Assembly: GCA_964405295.1 (NCBI GenBank)
Contig: CAYONI010000002.1
Coordinates: forward strand, 59,133 to 123,132
Source of the DNA: an uncultured Methanosarcinales archaeon
GTDB lineage: Archaea > Nanobdellota > Nanobdellia > Woesearchaeales > CAYZNE01
Length of the DNA stretch: 64,000 nucleotides
Direction of reading: 5' to 3'
The position numbers and the translations under genes are program-made. Shown here piece after piece: positions 42,073-56,412 of this stretch; position 1 is the stretch's first letter; each line of letters starts with the position of its first letter. The notes below the pieces were generated by a model. That model saw only the letters and a list, made by a program, of their open reading frames with translations. It did no database searches and was not told the DNA's origin.

Positions 42073-42112
42073 TTATCTGTATGGAAGTAAAATATCCCTC
42101 CCCCCAGACTTG
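42073..42112. repeat. 40-bp direct repeat, tRNA-proximal copy
   Basis: Spans the tRNA-Tyr T-loop to the discriminator base plus 22 nt of 3' flank. Confidence 0.8.
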
Positions 42113-42220
42113 AACCGGGGACCTTTCGGTTACGGCTGGTTATGTTTCATTTCTGTCCTTTCGGGTTAAGATCGCATAACTTCTACAGCCGAACGCTCTA
42201 GCCAACTGAGCTAGGGAGGG
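42095..42220 (-). tRNA. tRNA-Tyr(GTA) with 52-nt bulge-helix-bulge intron at 37/38
   Basis: Minus-strand cloverleaf read by eye. Acceptor CCCTCCC/GGGAGGG gives C1-G72, the archaeal Tyr identity element. D arm TAGCTCAGTTGGCTAGAGCG; anticodon loop CTGTAGA. The intron 3' end CAGCCG pairs with CGGCTG of the anticodon stem-loop. T arm CCCGGTTCAAGTCTGGG; CCA is not encoded. Confidence 0.8.
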
Positions 42221-47602: not shown

Positions 47603-48958
47603 TTAATTAATTTTATTTGTGATCAATCTATTTAATTTTCTTCTAACAATATATGATAAAACGAATGCTGCAATAAATGTCCCTAGCATTAGTCCAAGCC
47701 ATATCCCTATAATTCCTAGATTTAAAATTTTAATAAATAGAAAGAAAAAAGAAATAGGTATGATAAATTGTTTAAATAAAGCTAAAAACATTGGAATAAG
47801 TGGTTTTTTTAGTCCTTGCAATGTTGTTGAATTAATTTGAAATAACATGTGTCCAAAAATTGTTATTGCGCTTATTCTTAATGCAATTATTCCTATTGCT
47901 ATTACTTGAGGGTCTGCAGTAAAAAAAGTTATTAATTGTTTTGCAAAAATAATAATTAGTATTGCACCAGTTAGGATCATATATAACCCATATTTTAATG
48001 ACGTATTTAGTGCTTGTTTTATTCTAGTGTATTTTTTAGCGCCATTATTTTGTCCGCTTATGGCAAGCATTGCCATTCCTAATCCTATTGCCGGTAAACC
48101 TATTATTTGTTCAATTCTTGAGGCAACTCCCCAGGCAGCTATTGCAGCATCTCCAAATGCTTTGAGAAAATACATTAATATTATCATTCCAACTGACATG
48201 ATAATCATGTTAAGACTTGCAGGAAAACCTTGCTTTGCAATATTCTTATAAAATTTAAGGTTAGGTATAACATTTTTTATTTTATCAAAAGAAATTATTT
48301 TAGATTTTATAACTTTAATAAATAAATATATCATTGATAAAAATTGAATAATCACAGTGCATAATGCAATTCCTTTGATGCCCATTGCAGGGAAACCTAA
48401 CCATCCATACATAAAAAAAGGATCTAAAATTAAGTTTAAGAAAAATCCTATAACCAAAGCATTTCTTAAAGATTTAGTATCCCCTATTGACATTAAACCT
48501 GCATTTAAAGTATGGACTAATATGAATAAAGGAGCTCCATATAAAATAATTAATGCATAATCTTTTGCAAGAGCGATTGTTATTACTGTTGCGCCCATAA
48601 ATTTAAGTAAAGGATCAATGAAAGTGAGACCCAATATCATTAAAATAGCTGATATTATTATTGAGAATCCTATTGCTTGCCAAGCATATTTTTTTGCAAT
48701 TTCTTTTTTGTTTTCACCAAGAAAGTTGGATATGAGTGCTGCACTACCAACACTAATGCCATTACCTAAACCTATTATTAACATAAAAATAGGAAATGCC
48801 ATAGTCATTGCAGCTAGTGCTTCAGTAGAAATTAATCCTACATAAAAAGTATCTGTAACATTGAACATTGTTTGAAAGAACATCCCTATGGCTGCAGGTA
48901 TAGCCATGCTTAATATTAATTTAGAAATATTACCTTTTGTAAGATTTTTACCTTTCAT
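47603..48958 (-). CDS. MATE-family efflux transporter
   Basis: 12 TMs; N-terminus LTKGNISKLILSMAIPAAIGMFFQTMFNVTDTFYVG. Confidence 0.85.
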   Translation of the reverse strand: MKGKNLTKGNISKLILSMAIPAAIGMFFQTMFNVTDTFYVGLISTEALAAMTMAFPIFMLIIGLGNGISVGSAALISNFLGENKKEIAKKYAWQAIGFSIIISAILMILGLTFIDPLLKFMGATVITIALAKDYALIILYGAPLFILVHTLNAGLMSIGDTKSLRNALVIGFFLNLILDPFFMYGWLGFPAMGIKGIALCTVIIQFLSMIYLFIKVIKSKIISFDKIKNVIPNLKFYKNIAKQGFPASLNMIIMSVGMIILMYFLKAFGDAAIAAWGVASRIEQIIGLPAIGLGMAMLAISGQNNGAKKYTRIKQALNTSLKYGLYMILTGAILIIIFAKQLITFFTADPQVIAIGIIALRISAITIFGHMLFQINSTTLQGLKKPLIPMFLALFKQFIIPISFFFLFIKILNLGIIGIWLGLMLGTFIAAFVLSYIVRRKLNRLITNKIN

Positions 48959-49015
48959 TATTAGATTTTAGAGTGATTTATTTAAAAAGCTTATAGATTT
49001 TTGTTATGTTAAATT

Positions 49016-49202
49016 TAACATCAGGATTAAGAGAAGTTTCTGGAGCGAATTTGGGAAATTTCAGCAGGAAATTTCCTCTTAATTGCTGTTATGTGTTTTT
49101 TCTGCAAGAAAAAAAGCCGAAGGCTCAGTTATTTTCATGTTAATTAATTTCGTCTGAAGAGAGTCTATATATCCGAAGGACGAGGGGGAGTCCAGATTTT
49201 TT
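49016..49202 (+). repeat. structured intergenic repeat unit A (attC-like imperfect hairpin plus GC-rich 3' module)
   Basis: TTAACATCAGGATTAAGAGAAG ... CTCTTAATTGCTGTTATGT, then CCGAAGGACGAGGGGGAGTCC and an oligo-T; homologous to units B-F. Confidence 0.65.
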
Positions 49203-49240
49203 GTTTCTTTTATTAAAAAAAGAAAGTTTACACTAAGATA

Positions 49241-49320
49241 TTAGGGAGGGATTCGAACCCTCGAACCCACTAAGGGAGCAGATTGGTAATCTGCCGAGTT
49301 TGACCACTTCTCTACCCTCA
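49241..49320 (-). pseudogene. tRNA-like fragment (no valid acceptor stem)
   Basis: Minus strand has a D-arm-like segment and stem-loop GCAGA-TTACCAA-TCTGC. Its T arm GAGGGTTCGAATCCCTC shares a 17-mer TCGAGGGTTCGAATCCC with tRNA-Arg and an 11-mer ATCCCTCCCTA with tRNA-Tyr. The 5' and 3' ends cannot pair. Confidence 0.3.
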
Positions 49321-49348
49321 TATAAAATGTATGAGAATTAACTTGAGG

Positions 49349-49819
49349 TTATATTTTTTCTTCAAATAGTTCAATTAATAAATCATATACAGATTTGAAT
49401 TTTTTAAATCTTTTAGGTTCTTTAATTGATTTTTTTATAAACTCAATGTCCATTTCTTTTATTTTATTAATCATATCTCTACTTAAATTTGGTTTTTTAT
49501 CTTTGTATATTGGCCTGACTTTATGACATCCTAAGAAATCTTCAATTTCTTCTTCATTAAAATAAATAAATTTTTTAAGACCTTCCATTTCTGAGGTTAT
49601 AGTTTTCTCTTTTTTAAAAACATCTGAATCGAAAATAAATATAGTTTCGCTATCGATTCCCTTTAATTGTTGAAATTTTTCATCCATCTTTTGAGATTTA
49701 GTTATGGCATTATTTAAATCTCCTATTGCTTTAGGATGAAATTTTAATGTGTAATTACTGGATACAAATTTATTACCTTTTAAAGCCTTTAAAATAATTT
49801 TTTTCAGAAGGACCTTCAT
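49349..49819 (-). CDS. small partner protein of the AAA_21 ATPase (hypothetical)
   Basis: 156 aa, 20 bp downstream of the ATPase on the same strand; contains ETIFIFDSD acidic motif. Confidence 0.35.
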   Translation of the reverse strand: MKVLLKKIILKALKGNKFVSSNYTLKFHPKAIGDLNNAITKSQKMDEKFQQLKGIDSETIFIFDSDVFKKEKTITSEMEGLKKFIYFNEEEIEDFLGCHKVRPIYKDKKPNLSRDMINKIKEMDIEFIKKSIKEPKRFKKFKSVYDLLIELFEEKI

Positions 49820-49839
49820 AGAAAATGTAAATTACTTTT

Positions 49840-51045
49840 TTAATCTTCTTTATAGACATTTGGGAATCCTCCTAATACACCCTCTCTATAATAATCACCA
49901 TAGTTTTTGTTAATTTTGGGGTTATTCTTGACTATATTATGAAGATTAATTATTTTACTAACAGAATCTTCTTTTTCAATTATATTTATTTGATCACTTC
50001 TTAAATAATTAAGGATTTCTGGTTGATGAGTTGTAAATAATAATTGAGATTTATTGTCTTTTTTTGTAAAGTAATTTATAATAAATTCAACTATTTCAAT
50101 ATTAAAAGATGTTTCAATTTCATCATAAAGTATAATGGAATCCTTATTCAATTTGAATAGTGTGAAAAATAGTAATATGAACTTTTTAGTTCCACTTGAT
50201 TCTCCATTGAAATTTATTTTTAAATCTGCTTTATTGTGTTTATGTATTAAAATTAAATCTGTTACTGGCACTTTTTTTGTGGGTTGTTTTATAATTTCTT
50301 CATTATTTATTTTATATTCAATTTCTTCTCTAACTGATTTAACTAATTCTAAATCTTTTATCGAAAAATCAGCATATGTTAGAACATCTAATAATTCTTC
50401 CTTTAATCCTGAATCTTTTAACAAAGAGAAATCGGGGGGTTGATTAAATAAATTATTCGCTACAAATAGTTTAGTAAAAAAATCATATATTGGTTTTAAT
50501 GTGGCTGAGTTTAATTGCACCGCTCTTGATAACATTAAAGTTTGAGGAATGACACTTTTAGATAATATTTTTAATTCTTTTTCATATTTTCGATTGCTGA
50601 ATTCGAATTTTTTATTAGTTTTATTTTCGTTTCTTAAAAAAATTTCAGTCGGTTTTTGTGTTTGATAAACTACTGCATACTCTTTTATAATTTTTTTATT
50701 AGTATACGAGAATCCATAAATGTATTTTTTATTGTTTGAAAAAAATGTAATCTCAAATTCTGTTGGTTTATCTGGCGTGCTAATAAATGGTGAATATTTT
50801 ATATTTGTATCTATATTATGTTTTTGGGAATTTAAAACCATTTCTTTCATAAAATTTAATGCTGAAAGTAGAGATGTCTTTCCAGATCCATTAACTCCTA
50901 CGAGTCCAGATATTTTTAAAGTATCTATATTATTTTGCTGATTAATAAATTGTTCTCCTCTACTTTCTTTTGATTTTTTTTCAAATTTCAAAATTTCTTC
51001 ATTTTTATATGAATTAAAGTTTTTTAGTTTAAATTCGATTATCAT
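49840..51045 (-). CDS. AAA_21/AAA_15-type ABC-like ATPase (defence-associated family)
   Basis: Walker A GLVGVNGSGKTS, signature-like NGESSGTKKF, Walker B ILYDEIETS, H-loop LLFTTHQPE. Confidence 0.7.
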   Translation of the reverse strand: MIIEFKLKNFNSYKNEEILKFEKKSKESRGEQFINQQNNIDTLKISGLVGVNGSGKTSLLSALNFMKEMVLNSQKHNIDTNIKYSPFISTPDKPTEFEITFFSNNKKYIYGFSYTNKKIIKEYAVVYQTQKPTEIFLRNENKTNKKFEFSNRKYEKELKILSKSVIPQTLMLSRAVQLNSATLKPIYDFFTKLFVANNLFNQPPDFSLLKDSGLKEELLDVLTYADFSIKDLELVKSVREEIEYKINNEEIIKQPTKKVPVTDLILIHKHNKADLKINFNGESSGTKKFILLFFTLFKLNKDSIILYDEIETSFNIEIVEFIINYFTKKDNKSQLLFTTHQPEILNYLRSDQINIIEKEDSVSKIINLHNIVKNNPKINKNYGDYYREGVLGGFPNVYKED

Positions 51046-51261
51046 ATGGTTAAGAAATCAATCAATATATATAAATGTTGTTGTTTTTTACACTAATTTT
51101 GCTTTATCTTTTAGATATTGGCAGTAAATGAGAAAATATTGCAATTTTGTTGTGTTTCATAATTGATTTCGAATAAATTTATTGTGAGCCTAAATGTGTG
51201 TAGCACGGACTCTCCCTCTTTTGGTTCTTTTTCTAAAAGAACATAAAGTGAAAATTCGATT

Positions 51262-51433
51262 GAGTATAACATCGCGATTAAGAGAAGTTTTTGCGAAGCA
51301 AAAATTTGGATGGAAGAAACTGCAAGTTTCTGGAATCTCTTAATCGCTGTTATGTCTGTCGAAACTTGTTTCGACCAAGGGTTAGTGCAACGGTCGGCGA
51401 AGCCGAAACCCGCAGAGTTTTTCTTGAGTCCCG
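51262..51433 (+). repeat. structured intergenic repeat unit B
   Basis: GAGTATAACATCGCGATTAAGAGAAG pairs with TCTCTTAATCGCTGTTATGT (2-nt bulge). Internal hairpin TTTTTGCGAAGCAAAAA, then GTGCAACGG..GCGAAGCCGAAACCC, ending in TTTTTCTTGAGTCCC. Confidence 0.7.
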
Positions 51434-51468
51434 TTAAATATTTAAACTATTAAACTATATAGAGTTAT

Positions 51469-52251
51469 ATGGCAGATATATTATTAACAAATGATGATGG
51501 TTTCTCTTCCCAAGGATTTCTTGTTTTATTAAATGAATTAAAGAAAGAACATAAAGTAATAGGAGTTGCTCCTAAAAATGAACGAAGTTGGATTGGAAAA
51601 TCAATTAGTGCTCATAATGAAGTAATTTTAGAAAAAGTAAAGAGTAATCTTTATTCATTAACAGGAACTCCAGCAGATTGTACTCAGGTAGGAATCTATG
51701 ATGTTTTGAAGAGGAAACCTGATTTGGTTGTTTCAGGAATAAATTTAGGTTTAAATGCTGGACATGGTAGAATTTTAAGTTCAGGAACAATTGGTGCTGC
51801 AATGGAAGCTTCAATTGATGGAGTTAAATCAGTTTCAACTTCTATACATATTCCAATTGAATTGAAAAAAAGTTTAGATTTACATGATAAAAAAAATAGA
51901 AAAATATTCATTAATGCTGCAAAAATAACTTGTAAAGTGATTAAGATTTTTATGAATGCTGATTATGGAACTAGTACTGATCTTTTATCATTAAATATTC
52001 CTTTTGATGCAACAATCGATAGTCCAATTGAAATAACTGTTCCAGATAGACAACCATTAGGGCAGTTATTTTTCAAGAAAGGGAAATTTCACAAACTGAA
52101 GATTCCACCATTATTATTTGAATCTTCTTCAAAGGGAACAGATTTAAGAGCATTATATGAAAATAAAATATCCCTAACTCCTATTAGTTTAGAACTTGTA
52201 TCTAGAAATTCTTTAAAAAACCTTAAAACCATCATTAAAAAGAAGTGGTAG
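51469..52251 (+). CDS. surE: 5'/3'-nucleotidase SurE
   Basis: ILLTNDDGFSSQG N-terminus and overall SurE fold signature. Confidence 0.85.
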   Translation: MADILLTNDDGFSSQGFLVLLNELKKEHKVIGVAPKNERSWIGKSISAHNEVILEKVKSNLYSLTGTPADCTQVGIYDVLKRKPDLVVSGINLGLNAGHGRILSSGTIGAAMEASIDGVKSVSTSIHIPIELKKSLDLHDKKNRKIFINAAKITCKVIKIFMNADYGTSTDLLSLNIPFDATIDSPIEITVPDRQPLGQLFFKKGKFHKLKIPPLLFESSSKGTDLRALYENKISLTPISLELVSRNSLKNLKTIIKKKW

Positions 52252-52260
52252 GGACTCAAG

Positions 52261-52507
52261 AAAAATTAGACATAACATCAGGATTTGGAGAAGTCGTGCG
52301 TAGCACGATTTGGGTGGAGAAGTCTGCAAGACTTTGTAACCTCATAATCCTTGTTAAATCCTTCCGATAGGAACGAGGGATAACTGCAAGTGGTTTTTTG
52401 CGAAGCAAAAAAATCCTGAAGAGTAATATTTTCATTTCTATATCAATATTGAACAAAGCGAGTCTAAATGTCCTTTGGGACTGGGGCTGTTTGTTTTTTA
52501 TCAAAAT
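52261..52507 (+). repeat. structured intergenic repeat unit C
   Basis: Starts GGGACTCAAGAAAAA (inverted copy of unit B's end). CATAACATCAGGATT ... AATCCTTGTTAAAT stem, CTGCAAG boxes, hairpin TTTTTTGCGAAGCAAAAAAA; ends GGGGCTGTTTGTTTT. Confidence 0.7.
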
Positions 52508-52538
52508 CTTTTTATATATTAGATAACTCTTCAAGTTT

Positions 52539-53123
52539 ATGGTTGAATTTACAACAGAAAATCTTGGAAGAATACTTATTAATCGACTTAGAGAAAATAA
52601 TAATTTTGACGAAATATTATCAATAGTGAAAAGCAATTCCAGAGGGAATATTTATCTCGTTGGGGGAACTGTTAGTCGAACTTTAGCTAGTGAGTTATAT
52701 GGTGGAGAACAGAAAAATCAAGATTTTGATTTTGTTGTTGATGTATTAAATAGTGATTTAAAGATTCCAAAAGGTTGGGTGGTTACACACCATAAATTTG
52801 ACAATCCAACATTCAAGAAAGATGATCTTGAAATAGATCTATTTCCGTTATCTGACCACCAATATATCAAAAATAATAAACTGAAACCAACTATTGAAAA
52901 CTTTTTGGCAGGAGTTCCATTTTCAATTCAATCACTCGTTTTTGATATAAAAAATGAAAGATTAATTGGAGATGATGGAATTCAAGCTTTAAAGAATCGT
53001 AAATTCAAAGTTCATAACATAGATTCTGCAAAAGATGTTGCAAAACGTAAAGGAATTTCAATAAATGAACGAATGTTGCAAAAAGCTAAAAGTATGAACT
53101 TTGATATAATTCCATTCGATTAA
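52539..53123 (+). CDS. nucleotidyltransferase-fold (Pol beta superfamily) protein
   Basis: IYLVGGTVSR ... DFDFVVD resembles the hG[GS] ... DxD NTase motif. Confidence 0.4.
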   Translation: MVEFTTENLGRILINRLRENNNFDEILSIVKSNSRGNIYLVGGTVSRTLASELYGGEQKNQDFDFVVDVLNSDLKIPKGWVVTHHKFDNPTFKKDDLEIDLFPLSDHQYIKNNKLKPTIENFLAGVPFSIQSLVFDIKNERLIGDDGIQALKNRKFKVHNIDSAKDVAKRKGISINERMLQKAKSMNFDIIPFD

Positions 53124-53352
53124 AACAAACAGCCCCTTTTTCTAGAAATGAAAATTTTATTGTATATAACATCAGGATTAAGAGAAGTTTTTGCGTAGCA
53201 AAAATTTGGATGGAGCCTGCAAGGAGGAATCTCTAAATCCTTGTTAGTTGGGAAGACTGCAAGTCGACCGACCGAAGGGACAGTTTTTTAATTACTTAAC
53301 TTATATCAATTTCGAACGTAGTGAGTCTATTGTTTAGAAAAAGAGGGGTTTT
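53122..53352 (+). repeat. structured intergenic repeat unit D
   Basis: Starts AAAACAAACAGCCCC (inverted copy of unit C's end). TATAACATCAGGATTAAGAGAAG, hairpin TTTTTGCGTAGCAAAAA, AATCCTTGTTAGTT; ends AAAAAGAGGGGTTTT. Confidence 0.7.
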
Positions 53353-54067
53353 AATTTTTGCCTATATTCCACAACATTTTGAAATATTTTCTGAAAGTAT
53401 CTGCAAATTCTTTTCCATTAATCATTATTGAGATTATTTCGTTCTCATCAAGTTTTCCTATTATTAATTTGTTTTCATAAATTATAAATCCTACTGATGA
53501 AGAGAAATTTTCAGGAAGAAATTTATAATCAATCTTTGTGAAAAAATTTATTCGTTTAGATATTTCTTTTGTTTTTGGTTGAAGTAATTTTATATTCAAT
53601 TTTGAAAATTTATCCTGAATATATTTTGAAAATTTAAAACTTTCAACAAGATGTAAGCCACCACCAATCCAGTAAACTGTTTTATTGGTTTCGATTGCAT
53701 CTTCGAGAATTGTTTTTATTCCTTGTTTTCCCATTATAATATCAACTTTTGTATTATTGAAATTTGTATTTTGAAGGTTTTTGAGTGTGGGCATAATATT
53801 TTCTAAAGTAAATAATTTTTCATCAATTAATTGCCTTAAAGTTTTTACATTATTCGCATTAAAAAATTTAGTTCCCTTAATTATATTATATGTAACTAAT
53901 CCTTTAGTTATTAGAAGTTCTAAGTTATCATAAATAGTTCTTCTATTTATTCCTGTATTTTTTGAAAGTTTTACTGTGCTTTGTTGTGGAACTTTAAGTA
54001 ATGAGATATATATTTTTGATTCTATTTCTCTGAGACCAAGTTTTTTTAATTCGTTTTCTAGTTCCAT
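53351..54067 (-). CDS. TrmB-family transcriptional regulator
   Basis: N-terminal wHTH LGLREIESKIYISLLKVPQQSTVKLSKNTGINRRTIYDNLELLITKGLV. Confidence 0.7.
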   Translation of the reverse strand: MELENELKKLGLREIESKIYISLLKVPQQSTVKLSKNTGINRRTIYDNLELLITKGLVTYNIIKGTKFFNANNVKTLRQLIDEKLFTLENIMPTLKNLQNTNFNNTKVDIIMGKQGIKTILEDAIETNKTVYWIGGGLHLVESFKFSKYIQDKFSKLNIKLLQPKTKEISKRINFFTKIDYKFLPENFSSSVGFIIYENKLIIGKLDENEIISIMINGKEFADTFRKYFKMLWNIGKN

Positions 54068-54155
54068 GTTTATTTAGAATAGCTTTAAATATATAAAGTT
54101 TACGGGGGAATCCCCACACATTGATTTAAATTTGGTTATTAATTGCTACTTTTTA

Positions 54156-54818
54156 ATGGAAAAACATATATTATTTATGCCTGATGGAAATCGAAGATAT
54201 GCGACAAGAGAAAATATTTCTCCGGAAAAAACTTATCAAAAAGGAGCTAAATCATTAGAATTATTTAGCAATTTCTTTCTACTGGAAAATGATTGGACTC
54301 AATTAACCATGCATTTTATGTCAAAATATACCCATGAAAGAGATGATGGAAGTTTAAATCCAATCTATGGTGCTATGATAAAAGAATTTACTTATTTGCA
54401 CGATAGTAGTTATTTTGATAAAAATAAGATTAAATTTCAATGGATTGATCATTCAAGTAAATTGCCTGCTGAGGTTGTGGAAATTTGTCAATCATTAGAA
54501 GAAAAGACAAAAACCGGAGTTAAATTATCTTTAAATTTATTAGGCTATGATTTAGAAACTGACGAAAGAAATGCTTTTGAACAATCAAAGAATTATGATG
54601 AGTTTAAAGCTATTAGACTAATTTCAGATATAGATTTAGTAATTAGAACTACTGAAATGAGACCTTCAAAAGGCCCAGTTTATGCAATGGCTCAATCTCA
54701 AATGTTACTTCTTCAAAAATTAAATCCTGAATTAGAACGTACTGATTTAGAGAAGATATTGCAAGAATATAATAGTTTAGTGGAATATAGGCAAACCACA
54801 AATCCAATTCATAAATAA
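54156..54818 (+). CDS. divergent cis-prenyltransferase (UppS-like) paralog
   Basis: FMPDGNRRYATRE matches the cis-IPTase DGNRR(Y/W)A motif and an IRTT segment is retained, but the C-terminal substrate motifs are degenerate. ATG at 54156 preferred. Confidence 0.5.
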   Translation: MEKHILFMPDGNRRYATRENISPEKTYQKGAKSLELFSNFFLLENDWTQLTMHFMSKYTHERDDGSLNPIYGAMIKEFTYLHDSSYFDKNKIKFQWIDHSSKLPAEVVEICQSLEEKTKTGVKLSLNLLGYDLETDERNAFEQSKNYDEFKAIRLISDIDLVIRTTEMRPSKGPVYAMAQSQMLLLQKLNPELERTDLEKILQEYNSLVEYRQTTNPIHK

Positions 54819-55080
54819 AACCTCTCTTTTTCTTTTGTTAAGTAATTAAGAAATTGCAACTAACATCGGGCTTAAGGGAAGTTCAATTTCCTCGGAAAAA
54901 TTCTCCTCGTGAAACAGAGCTGAGAATTTTTTCAGAGCTGAAATTGAATTTGGGTGTAGTGAGGTGCAACCGAACGAAACCCTTTAAGCCCTATTAGTTT
55001 CGTCCGAATACTTGGAGGACTTGATTTTTAGTGCAACGATGCCGAAGGCAAAAAATCAAAGTCGTGTAGGGGCAAAATTA
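54817..55080 (+). repeat. structured intergenic repeat unit E
   Basis: CTAACATCGGGCTTAAGGGAAG pairs with CCTTTAAGCCCTATTAG (compensatory GGGCTT/AAGCCC relative to AGGATT/AATCCT in other units). GTGCAACCGAACG and GTGCAACGATGCCGAAGG modules; ends GGGGCAAAATTA. Confidence 0.65.
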
Positions 55081-55116
55081 GGAAGGTTTATAAAATACCT
55101 TTAATTCCACTAAATT

Positions 55117-55425
55117 ATGAGAATAGATTATCAACATAACTTGACACAAGAAGAAGCATACGGAAAAATAAATAATCTTTTAACAGATTTACAGAAACAG
55201 TATGCTGATAAAATAAGTAACCCTCAAACAAGTTGGAATTCCGAACATACAAGAATGGATTATAGTATGGAAATTATGGGATTCAAAACTAAAGGACAGG
55301 TTACTTTAAATGATAGTCAAGTTAGTTTAGAAGGAAAACTTCCATTCATGGCTAAAATGTTTAGTGGAAAAATTGAAGCAATGGTTAAAACACAACTAGA
55401 TGATTTACTTGCTTGTGATTTCTGA
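55117..55425 (+). CDS. PHA_gran_rgn-like small protein (polyhydroxyalkanoic-acid-system family)
   Basis: C-terminal VSLEGKLPFMAKMFSGKIEAMVKTQLDDLL resembles the family's conserved tail. Confidence 0.4.
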   Translation: MRIDYQHNLTQEEAYGKINNLLTDLQKQYADKISNPQTSWNSEHTRMDYSMEIMGFKTKGQVTLNDSQVSLEGKLPFMAKMFSGKIEAMVKTQLDDLLACDF

Positions 55426-55433
55426 ATATAATT

Positions 55434-55490
55434 TAATTTTGCCCCGTAACGATTGAGTATAACATATATTAGGCCTAGTTTGTTAGTGCC
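55434..55490 (+). repeat. mini repeat unit F
   Basis: TAATTTTGCCCC (inverted copy of unit E's end), then GAGTATAACAT ... TAGGCCTA ... TTGTTAG hairpin. Confidence 0.5.
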
Positions 55491-55512
55491 TAATTATAGT
55501 TAATATATGCTA

Positions 55513-55531
55513 ATTCGGAAGAATTCCGAAT
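55513..55531. promoter_or_regulatory. hairpin ATTCGGAA-GAA-TTCCGAAT 45 bp upstream of the recombinase gene
   Basis: 8-bp perfect inverted arms with a 3-nt spacer. Confidence 0.35.
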
Positions 55532-55575
55532 GGCTAGGGCTTAATATTATTAAGATTAAGTAGATAACTTCTTAT

Positions 55576-56412
55576 ATGGATTATATGTTAGATGAAGCTA
55601 AAAAACAGGATTATCTGCAGAGAATTGCTGATGAGTGTAAATTAAGGGGTTTTAGCAGGCAAACTTTGAAAGCTTATTCTTATTGGATTGCAAAATATTT
55701 GGATTTTATTATTAAAAATAGGTTTAATTTGGGAAATTCTAGTGTTAGGTATTATTTCCTAAGTTTAGATTTGAGTGTGAATTCTTCAAGATTATGCTAT
55801 GCAGCTCTAAGATTTTTCTTCGCTAATATTCTGAACAGACCTTTTACAACCGATGAAATTCCTATTAAGAAGAAAGAAAAAACTTTGCCTAAAGTATTAT
55901 CTAAGCAACAAATTAAATTAATATTAAATGAAACCAAAAATCTTAAACATAAACTAGTTATTGAGGTGCTTTATTCAACTGGGTTGAGATTGCAAGAATT
56001 AATTAATCTTAAAAGAGCTGATATTGATTTTGATAATAATACTTTGTTTGTTAGAAAAGGCAAAGGTAAGAAGGATAGACTCACAATTATTTCTGAAAAT
56101 ATTAAATTAGATTTATTAAAATATTATAGTCAATACGAATTTAAAACAAATTATGTGTTTGAAGGTAGAAAGGGTAAATATTCTAAAAAGTCTGTTCAAT
56201 TAATTCTACACAATACAAGTAAAAAACTTAAATTTAGAATTCATCCTCATATGTTAAGACACTCTTTTGCAACTCATTTATTAGAGCAGGGAACTGACAT
56301 AAGAATTATACAGAAGCTTCTTGGCCATTCTGATCTTAACACAACAGAAATTTACACAAGAGTTGCAAATAAGAATTTAAAGAAAATCAAGAATCCTCTA
56401 GATAGTATTTAA
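55576..56412 (+). CDS. tyrosine recombinase (XerA/XerC/D family)
   Basis: C-terminal catalytic region HPHMLRHSFATHLLEQGTDIRIIQKLLGHSDLNTTEIYTRV (R..H..R..Y); N-terminal core-binding domain. Confidence 0.85.
   Translation: MDYMLDEAKKQDYLQRIADECKLRGFSRQTLKAYSYWIAKYLDFIIKNRFNLGNSSVRYYFLSLDLSVNSSRLCYAALRFFFANILNRPFTTDEIPIKKKEKTLPKVLSKQQIKLILNETKNLKHKLVIEVLYSTGLRLQELINLKRADIDFDNNTLFVRKGKGKKDRLTIISENIKLDLLKYYSQYEFKTNYVFEGRKGKYSKKSVQLILHNTSKKLKFRIHPHMLRHSFATHLLEQGTDIRIIQKLLGHSDLNTTEIYTRVANKNLKKIKNPLDSI

Follow-up and report, generated by a model that had tools for sequence, protein, structure and literature searches.

The window analysed here is a stretch of 64,000 nucleotides (contig CAYONI010000002.1 of assembly GCA_964405295.1, positions 59,133 to 123,132) from an uncultured archaeon placed in the Woesearchaeales. 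Five related repeat units, designated A to E, were found in its intergenic gaps, all on the + strand, in one orientation and spanning positions 49016-54996. To their right lie an attI-like site, designated F (55452-55494, +), and a gene encoding a XerA-type tyrosine recombinase of 278 amino acids (55576-56412, +). We read units A to E as attC-like sites of an integron-like array of mobile cassettes, which starts at F beside the XerA-type gene of a DPANN (Woesearchaeota-type) archaeon, and give this reading a probability of roughly 0.7.

Unit A (49016-49091, +), the distal and last site of the array, scored 79.7 bits with covariance model R1, which was built from a MAFFT alignment of 102 units (alignment A1). 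Unit B (51267-51352, +) scored 79.8 bits and folded as DNA at -21.5 kcal/mol (z-score -7.8). Unit C (52273-52356, +) was recognised by the covariance model, the DNA fold and the stem count, and unit D (53167-53246, +) by the model (82.2 bits) and the DNA fold. Unit E (54861-54996, +), with 41.8 bits (E 4e-6) and a fold z-score of -5.3, lay outside the seed and was unmatched by the retrieval pattern described below, yet was picked up by R1. The matches of R1 in the window were exactly A to E, all on the + strand. An original prediction, made from the letters of this region, had counted six units; the sixth corresponds to F, a site of another kind, which shares only ATTGAGTATAACAT, forms a simple hairpin, has no closing GTTA and was missed by the covariance model.

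Each unit, when folded as DNA, gave a three-way junction with two hairpins, P2 and P3, inside a stem, P1 (z-scores -2.7 to -7.8 for units A to E). P1 consists of TAACA paired with TGTTA (5 bp), a 2-nt bulge and a further 11-12 bp. In unit B, TAACA and a TC bulge are followed by GCGATTAAGAG, which pairs with CTCTTAATCGC ahead of TGTTA, and all 11 pairs of this inner stem are Watson-Crick; P2 is TTTTTGC-GAA-GCAAAAA and P3 is AGAAACT-GCA-AGTTTCT. Watson-Crick pairs occupy 9 of the 11 stem positions in unit C, whose P2 is CGTGC-GTA-GCACG, and 10 of the 11 in unit D. P1 of unit E joins GGGCTTAAGGG to CCTTTAAGCCC with 10 Watson-Crick pairs and one G.T; this unit also has a long insertion in P2 and the closing box TATTA. 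The stem of unit A is partly decayed (8 Watson-Crick pairs and one G.T of 11), and its left flank, GTTAAATTTAA (49008-49018), is a poor version of the half-site described below.

The compensatory substitutions proposed originally for this stem were borne out, with GGGCTT/AAGCCC in unit E where A, C and D have AGGATT/AATCCT. Unit B, which had been grouped with C and D, has GCGATT/AATCGC instead, a further double compensatory change. The conserved 2-nt bulge does lie on the 5' arm, but it reads TC on the + strand and GA, as had been described, only on the complement. The AAC/GTT tips are generally kept, except that TATTA in place of TGTTA leaves a C.A mismatch in the tip of unit E.

Relatives of the units were retrieved in a scan of species-representative genomes, with a pattern in which TAACATY, GAAGT, RATTTGGR and TGTTA were the sole fixed elements and the stem was unconstrained. 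At least 120 loci were found, mostly in metagenome-assembled genomes of Woesearchaeota, Pacearchaeota, Nanoarchaeota and Aenigmatarchaeota, and the unit type is present in at least 120 species-level genomes, most of which carry DPANN labels. When 129 distinct units were aligned by the fixed anchors alone, without structure fitting, the 11-bp stem had 9.56 Watson-Crick pairs, compared with 6.97 ± 0.13 when partners were shuffled and 2.1-4.4 when the register was shifted. These units had 52 different 5' arms and 42 different 3' arms, and the bulge on the 5' arm of the + strand was TC in 110 and TT in 19 of them.

In alignment A1, 94.7% of the cells pair and double-sided changes occur at 9 of the 11 variable pairs. 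Double-sided cells numbered 191, against 60 ± 6 in shuffled alignments (0/500), and the covariation score was 0.355, against 0.133 when shuffled and at most 0.10 when slid. The nTAACA...TGTTAn tips are invariant across the 102 aligned units, and the pairs between them covary. P2 likewise covaried (4.35 of 5 pairs vs 2.16 ± 0.08 shuffled), and rare variants of the invariant motifs are compensatory: three units combine GAACT and AGTTGG, and a single unit combines GGAGT and ATTCGG. In addition, 56 distinct units that were detected by nhmmer outside the retrieval pattern had the same architecture and kept the covariation. The expectation that structure is conserved as the sequence drifts was thus upheld, the covariation persisting with more copies in shuffle and register tests on 102-129 units.

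Matches to the pattern in viral contigs were limited to three, which gives no evidence for a viral vehicle. One locus, L062 (4560-5700), lies on a contig labelled Candidatus Paceibacteria, which has one unit and one cassette as well as a bacterial GroEL (685 bits) and HtpX. What adjoins its unit-type junction, ..ATATGTCGCTTAAC|TGCTCGAAAACGG.., is only the final ~41 codons of a gene for a tyrosine recombinase, beside a tRNA; the left flank, GAGTAATATGTCGCY, also stands before units in L016 and L123 and before the distal-most unit of L004. The element may occur in bacteria of the candidate phyla radiation (CPR), or a site may lie inside a recombinase gene.

Beyond the part enclosed by P1, each cassette holds further conserved mini-hairpin modules with GNA triloops, such as TTTTTTCT-GCA-AGAAAAAA and GCC-GAA-GGC. 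In the window these modules were located at 49092-49200, 51353-51440, 52357-52530, 53247-53350 and 54997-55100, and in relatives at 1-160 of L002, 1-130 of L003 and 1290-1420 of L007. A block of the form AATTTCG..GAGTCTA..GGGG..TTTTTGTTTCTTTT also recurs outside the units, and some module types recur between genomes, for example tacgttttttctgca after TGTTA in at least eight loci. The modules may be terminators, insulators or accessory protein sites.

Upstream of the units, ATT is conserved at positions -8 to -6 and G or T at -5, giving ATTKnnnnTAA|CAT; among the 129 units, A(-8) was present in 115, T(-7) in 117 and T(-6) in 114. The motif ATTKnnnnTAACAT occurs nine times in the window, where 1.7 occurrences are expected. 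The dif site of Pyrococcus abyssi that has been used in experiments reads ATTGGATATAA-TCGGCC-TTATATCTAAA and is cut at the boundaries of arms and spacer (PMC2958812, PMC8371274). Since ATTKnnnnTAA resembles both the P. abyssi dif arms ATTGGATATAA and TTTAGATATAA (PMC2958812, PMC8371274), the conserved flank can be regarded as a XerA-type half-site. One such half-site, ATTGAGTATAA (51259-51269, +), bounds on its right the segment that runs from unit A to unit B, with a predicted cleavage after 51269 (TAA|CAT).

The predicted cleavage point of the half-site coincides with the crossover as mapped between genomes. In a related species, a cassette of about 4 kb has been acquired at this point: locus L005 equals L004 plus a segment of 4.07 kb between the last cassette and F. 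Both junctions of this segment read TATAACAT; to the left the sequence stays with the old cassette, and to the right the unit core and the core of F are swapped. Furthermore, L002 and L003, which represent the species of the window in other samples, have a 100% identical recombinase and an identical F. The window diverges completely from both immediately left of TAACAT in F, cassette E being replaced, and the three samples with identical recombinases carry three different first cassettes. In the population, the sequence of F right of TAACAT is thus constant and that to the left variable. In a species whose recombinase is 88% identical, the flank downstream of the gene was constant and the upstream side varied by sample. 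Together, these comparisons place the crossover within TATAACAT, at the 5' edge of the unit, and show that new cassettes enter naturally at F. The resolution of the crossover is limited to the eight shared nucleotides of TATAACAT; the cut position within them is probably TAA|CAT, where XerA cleavage would fall.

Several independent assemblies (L002, L003, L130) stop at their 5' ends 240-280 nt ahead of the recombinase gene, inside the first cassette or slightly beyond it. These breaks could result from graph forks caused by cassette polymorphism.

Site F of the window reads ATTGAGTATAA-CATATA-TTAGGCCTAGT and includes the hairpin ATTAGGC...GCCTAAT (55468-55494). In a scan of 19 loci, which missed the F of the window, 12 had an F-like site, placed approximately 84-151 nt (in one case ~294 nt) before the start of the recombinase gene. 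The hairpin type of F was seen in the window and in L004, L128, L022, L058 and L089. A second F-like class without a palindrome (L120, L045, L116, L090, L091) has ATTnnnnnTAAC followed by TCGTTTCTATGCGAA-like sequence. To the left of ~56 kb in the window, most genes lie on the + strand and the GC skew is positive; to the right, most genes lie on the - strand and the skew is negative or close to zero. With just 8 kb available on the right, this switch is no more than suggestive of a replication-terminus pattern, where dif would sit.

The best family for the recombinase was NF040815 (XerA_Arch), with 217.3 bits, marginally below the cutoff of 220. Its best match in the PDB was XerA of P. abyssi (4A8E, 1.2e-47), which is collinear over residues 7-271. 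The IntI model TIGR02249 matched with 186 bits (cutoff 265) in two separate pieces. In the alignment with IntI4 of Vibrio cholerae (2A3V), residues 13-176 correspond to 5-173 and residues 221-276 to 263-318; 44 amino acids stand where IntI4 has 89, and the IntI-specific insertion is therefore absent. Ten array-adjacent recombinases of other genomes (259-275 amino acids) also had XerA_Arch as the best family, with 201-250 bits, six of them above the cutoff; their only matches to the IntI model were split into an N-terminal and a C-terminal part and stayed under the cutoff of that model. A canonical IntI was thus rejected for the array-adjacent gene, which is XerA-type and has no IntI insertion.

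The association between units and recombinase is constant in placement and direction. In all 23 loci with a homologue of the recombinase (~19 independent genomes), the detected units (22 loci) lie upstream of the gene and on the same strand. Moreover, in L128, which was retrieved by a 62%-identical protein and not by the DNA pattern, the gene is likewise preceded by three units and an F-like site. The orientation of the units is invariant and follows the recombinase, not the cassette genes, and among 241 unit matches found by nhmmer, both strands were never represented within one locus.

Non-Watson-Crick cells of the stem were biased by strand, with 100 G.T against 42 A.C on the + strand (p = 1e-6) and, in near-perfect stems, 45 against 5. 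TAACG variants also give G.T on the + strand. The interior loops were overwhelmingly triloops, namely GCA (76), GAA (52) and GTA (20), of the form GNA on the + strand only, and no GNRA or UNCG tetraloop was found in the unit loops. GNA triloops of the d(GCGAAGC) type are exceptionally stable DNA mini-hairpins. The G.T excess and the confinement of GNA triloops to the + strand point to folding of the single-stranded + strand, which we infer to occur as DNA.

The ends of the cassettes are complementary. Those of cassette B match at 5 of 5 positions (TGTTA|TGTCT vs AGACA|TAACA), and the fold of its circular junction has an extended P1 (-27.0 vs -24.9 kcal/mol); the complementarity is 4/5 for cassette D. 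Overall, the 5 nt downstream of one unit and the 5 nt upstream of the next form 3.91 of 5 pairs on average, with 35 of 77 comparisons perfect, compared with 1.98 of 5 for random pairs (2.6% perfect) and 2.26 for the two flanks of the same unit. A circularised cassette would accordingly extend P1 by 5 bp.

The cassettes and the distal segment of the window hold genes of an accessory kind. Cassette B (51270-52275, +) comprises the core of unit B, a SurE gene (51469-52251, +; Pfam 3.9e-45) and the half-site ATTAGACATAA (52265-52275). Cassette C (52276-53169, +) comprises the core of unit C, an open reading frame (ORF) of 194 amino acids (52539-53123, +), for which the family searches of window proteins gave no family match, and the half-site ATTGTATATAA (53159-53169). 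The core of unit D is followed in cassette D (53170-54863, +) by a gene for a TrmB-family regulator (53351-54067, -), a UPP-synthase-like gene (54132-54818, +) and the half-site ATTGCAACTAA (54853-54863), and that of unit E in cassette E (54864-55462, +), which is proximal to the recombinase, by a PHA_gran_rgn gene (55117-55425, +) and the half-site ATTGAGTATAA (55452-55462). The distal segment between units A and B (49019-51269, +) contains a tRNA (49237-49322, -), assigned by ARAGORN as an 86-nt tRNA-Gly with the unusual anticodon ACC (Rfam 38.8 bits), and two genes at 49349-51045 (-): an AAA_21 (AbiEii/OLD-like) ATPase of 401 amino acids (49840-51045, -) and a partner ORF of 156 amino acids (-) without assignment. 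They look like a defence-type gene pair carried in the array. Elsewhere in the window, a 126-nt tRNA match at 42095-42220 (-), found with Rfam only, is consistent with an archaeal intron-containing tRNA. Together with the names that homologues carry, an intron-bearing tRNA assigns the window to a DPANN archaeon of the Woesearchaeota/Nanoarchaeota type.

Cassette ORFs were directed away from the recombinase in 54 of 70 segments, which is the canonical integron orientation. The window is atypical in this respect, its cassettes being mostly inverted, whereas 23% are inverted across segments. The cassettes appear to carry their own promoters. Across genomes, the cargo includes restriction-modification, acetyltransferase, kinase, regulator and metabolic genes; the newest cassette of L005 holds an Eco57I-like restriction-modification gene. 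A search for the same cassette in different genomes found only same-species duplicates.

In the mechanism that we propose, a cassette would consist of CAT and the unit core up to TGTTA, a 5-nt flank, the gene or genes, and the complementary 5-nt flank within ATTKnnnnTAA. A new cassette would enter F by crossover at TAA|CAT, on the strand with the 11-nt XerA half-site ATTKnnnnTAA 5' of the cut. The + strand of the unit would act as a single strand and fold into the three-way junction, with P3 branching from the opposite strand. Directly after P1, the invariant AAGT would pair with ATTT of ATTTGG and close P2, the G.T wobble being conserved. If P1 stacks on P2, the strand opposite TTAnnnGAAGT would read ATTT^CnnnTAA, a second 11-nt half-site assembled from the ATTTGG motif and the 3' arm of P1. 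This half-site would be followed by a 6-nt spacer and then by the complement of the first half-site, the spacer of the top strand being 8 nt (6 plus the bulge). With two XerA half-sites flanking a central region of 6 or 8 nt, the fold would be a mimic of dif, which could recombine with F by one strand exchange after TAA. It would be comparable to the bottom strands of attC and to the attP(+) hairpin of the CTX phage, and the reaction to attC x attI recombination in integrons and to the integration of that phage. This geometry is deduced from the invariant motifs, their spacing and the covariation.

Several observations weigh against this reading. The role of XerA as the catalyst, in binding and in cleavage, and the single-stranded state of the substrate are inferred. 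If the site were a pure hairpin, no more than 8 of the 11 bp of the left half-site would be duplex. A half-site can be recognised in the right arm of F in some genomes only, this arm being a variable palindrome elsewhere, so that recognition may be by structure rather than by dif-like sequence; the generic 11-6-11 dif pattern ATTKN4TAAN6TTAN4MAAT was found 17 times in the AT-rich window, against 18.8 expected. The rule of end complementarity is broken by unit E and by the A-B segment, whose poorly complementary ends suggest that it may be other than a simple cassette. The relatives used (129-189 distinct units) are mostly metagenome-assembled, and some bins are labelled as bacteria. Further, a canonical IntI may be encoded elsewhere in the genomes, the comparison covering contigs only.

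Hybrid units are a further difficulty, as they are unexplained by a single crossover at TAA|CAT. Approximately 15% of units (at most 7 of 11 Watson-Crick pairs) have the 5' arm and P2 of one type and P3 and the 3' arm of another, and P1 is mismatched in them because the arms derive from different types. They were found in L012, L014, L015, L016 (847), L026, L039, L047 (5809), L048, L053, L065, L078, L109, L126 and L127. The breakpoints lie near ATTTGG or in the P3 loop, that of L078 being inside the P3 loop.

Among the alternatives, the one that fares best is duplex recombination of the kind used by integrative mobile elements exploiting Xer recombination (IMEX), in which ordinary Xer recombination at a dif-like F would need the ATTKnnnnTAA arm only and the hairpins would serve otherwise, as terminators or insulators or as replication or packaging signals. 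The likeness of the half-site to a dif arm and of F to an 11-6-11 site in several genomes agrees with it, as do the T-runs and extra mini-hairpins that flank the units and the terminus-like switch in gene orientation and GC skew near 56 kb. We nevertheless consider it unlikely. The complementarity of the cassette ends, which extends the stem only after circularisation, would have no role in duplex recombination, nor would the strand-specific tolerance of G.T and the compensatory changes between GAAGT and ATTTGG; moreover, the distance from the crossover box to the start of the stem is constant, at 2 nt, in all units.

A canonical integron is a more doubtful alternative. The units would then be divergent attC sites of a cluster of attC sites lacking integron-integrases (CALIN), served by a true IntI encoded elsewhere, with the adjacent XerA gene as a bystander. 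The TAAC...GTTA tips, the imperfect hairpin and insertion beside a divergent recombinase gene all fit integron logic. Ghaly et al. (2022) reported six archaeal IntIs with the extra domain and 539 attCs in 75 genomes, mostly as clusters without IntI and with few in Nanoarchaeota, Woesearchaeales included (PMC9668308). The XerA-type gene, however, is adjacent and co-oriented in 23 of 23 homologue loci and in the protein-retrieved locus, the left flank matches a XerA arm, and the unpaired bases are on the arm opposite to the extrahelical bases of attC. The attC constructs printed in that study, including the tested one from Nanoarchaeota, are canonical simple hairpins without GAAGT or ATTTGG (PMC9668308), and its 75 attC-bearing genomes include only a handful of Nanoarchaeota, compared with at least 120 species-level genomes here. 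By contig prefix, its supplements and the present loci share no contigs.

A structured RNA, which the original prediction had named beside recombination sites, would place a cis-regulatory element, terminator or small RNA between the genes. This is disfavoured and regarded as highly improbable, even though covariation in several stems, strand-specific pairs compatible with G.U and the intergenic position would suit an RNA. At gathering thresholds, Rfam (Rfam 15) detected only tRNAs in the window, and at E up to 1 it gave nothing relevant, only chance matches, in 48900-55700. In addition, the folding strand is antisense to neighbouring ORFs in 54 of 70 cases and its orientation tracks the recombinase, the triloops are GNA and GNRA or UNCG tetraloops are lacking, and the variation between strains starts exactly at the unit edge. 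A remnant of a miniature inverted-repeat transposable element (MITE) or other transposon can be dismissed in spite of short, non-coding copies with inverted TAACA...TGTTA termini, many per genome, as the arms differ among copies of one array yet covary within a copy, the copies are strictly co-oriented and clustered beside the recombinase gene, and target-site duplications (5-nt direct repeats) were found in 0 of 185 units, with an identity between a unit's own flanks of 1.16 against 1.11 for random pairs.

Of the two options originally raised, recombination sites are well supported: the units bound cassettes and are co-oriented with the recombinase, and it is exactly at their TAAC edge that natural variants diverge. 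The designation as attC holds only in a loose sense, given the XerA-type enzyme, the arm on which the unpaired bases lie and the three-way junction.

A broader proposal can be made tentatively, at somewhat less than even odds. DPANN archaea, and possibly some CPR bacteria, would capture cassettes in an integron-like manner without an integron integrase; XerA, the resolvase of chromosome dimers, would insert and excise cassettes at or beside its own dif-like site, and the cassette sites would be single-stranded three-way junctions that rebuild dif from two stacked helices. Such a system would either have invented the integron principle independently or survive as a relic of the transition from Xer to IntI. 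In the literature searched, which covered XerA together with attC, integrons of DPANN archaea, IMEX in archaea and Xer systems resembling integrons, no account of XerA-linked arrays of hairpin-bounded cassettes was encountered. By the prevailing view, integron integrases arose from Xer-like recombinases through the acquisition of a domain that recognises extrahelical bases in folded attC DNA, and a widespread cassette system with an unmodified XerA-type enzyme bears directly on their origin. If the proposal is true, structure-specific cassette capture would be possible without the IntI innovation, in a testable intermediate or convergent form, and would be a major route for the movement of genes in DPANN archaea with their reduced genomes; it would also explain the recurrent assembly breaks next to xerA. 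Tools built on canonical IntI and attC models may under-report such arrays.

The array shares many features with integrons. Both consist of mostly single-gene cassettes that each end in an imperfect hairpin site with AAC/GTT tips, and in both the recombinase gene diverges from the top strand of the cassettes and has the insertion site next to it. The crossover falls at the GTT/AAC box, so that the outer part of the box belongs to the neighbouring cassette; the cassette ends are complementary (inverse core and core), structure is kept while sequence drifts, and folding is strand-specific. The units also have the imperfect hairpin with inverse core RYYYAAC and core GTTRRRY by which attC is recognised. 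In contrast to integrons, the XerA-type enzyme lacks the insertion that IntI has around patch III, the site takes the form of a three-way junction in which GAAGT and ATTTGG are invariant, and the flank is an 11-nt XerA-like half-site, not TTRRRY. The conserved unpaired TC or TT follows TAACA on the crossover arm, whereas the extrahelical bases of attC are on the other arm. MacDonald reportedly placed these bases, in 2006, on the R''-L'' arm, which is the 3' arm of the bottom strand that recombines and lies apart from the R' box where cleavage occurs; the attC constructs of Ghaly et al. (2022) were a second reference for this geometry. The system is therefore integron-like in function, and membership of the family fails on the IntI domain and on the placement of the extrahelical bases.

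The archaeal Xer/dif system of P. abyssi (Cortez et al., 2010; PMC2958812) is similar in its collinear protein, in a half-site like ATTGGATATAA and in a crossover at the boundary of arm and spacer. In Thermococcales, dif is a single 11-6-11 site away from xerA and without a cassette array (PMC2958812). Here, by contrast, only ~84-151 nt (in one case ~294 nt) separate the site from the downstream gene, and cassettes with hairpin sites follow it.

Mobile elements of the CTX-phage type (IMEX; reviewed in PMC5357621) likewise use a host Xer-family recombinase instead of a dedicated integrase, and their copies pile up in tandem at one chromosomal site. In the mechanism proposed above, a folded single strand would also mimic dif, with two arms and an imperfectly paired centre. 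Val et al. reportedly found, in 2005, that the hairpin of single-stranded attP(+) of the CTX phage is integrated by host XerCD at dif. The present elements differ in being small gene cassettes, not phages, in being archaeal, with a single XerA rather than XerC/XerD, and in the three-way junction, where one half-site would be built from two helices.

In Acinetobacter, pdif modules are plasmid genes flanked by XerC/XerD sites and are presumably moved by the housekeeping Xer enzymes. They resemble the present cassettes as small gene modules bounded by Xer-type sites and in the presumed use of a housekeeping Xer enzyme. The pdif sites, however, are duplexes of 28 bp in alternating orientation, located on plasmids and without a conserved hairpin, whereas the sites described here are co-oriented, structured and chromosomal.

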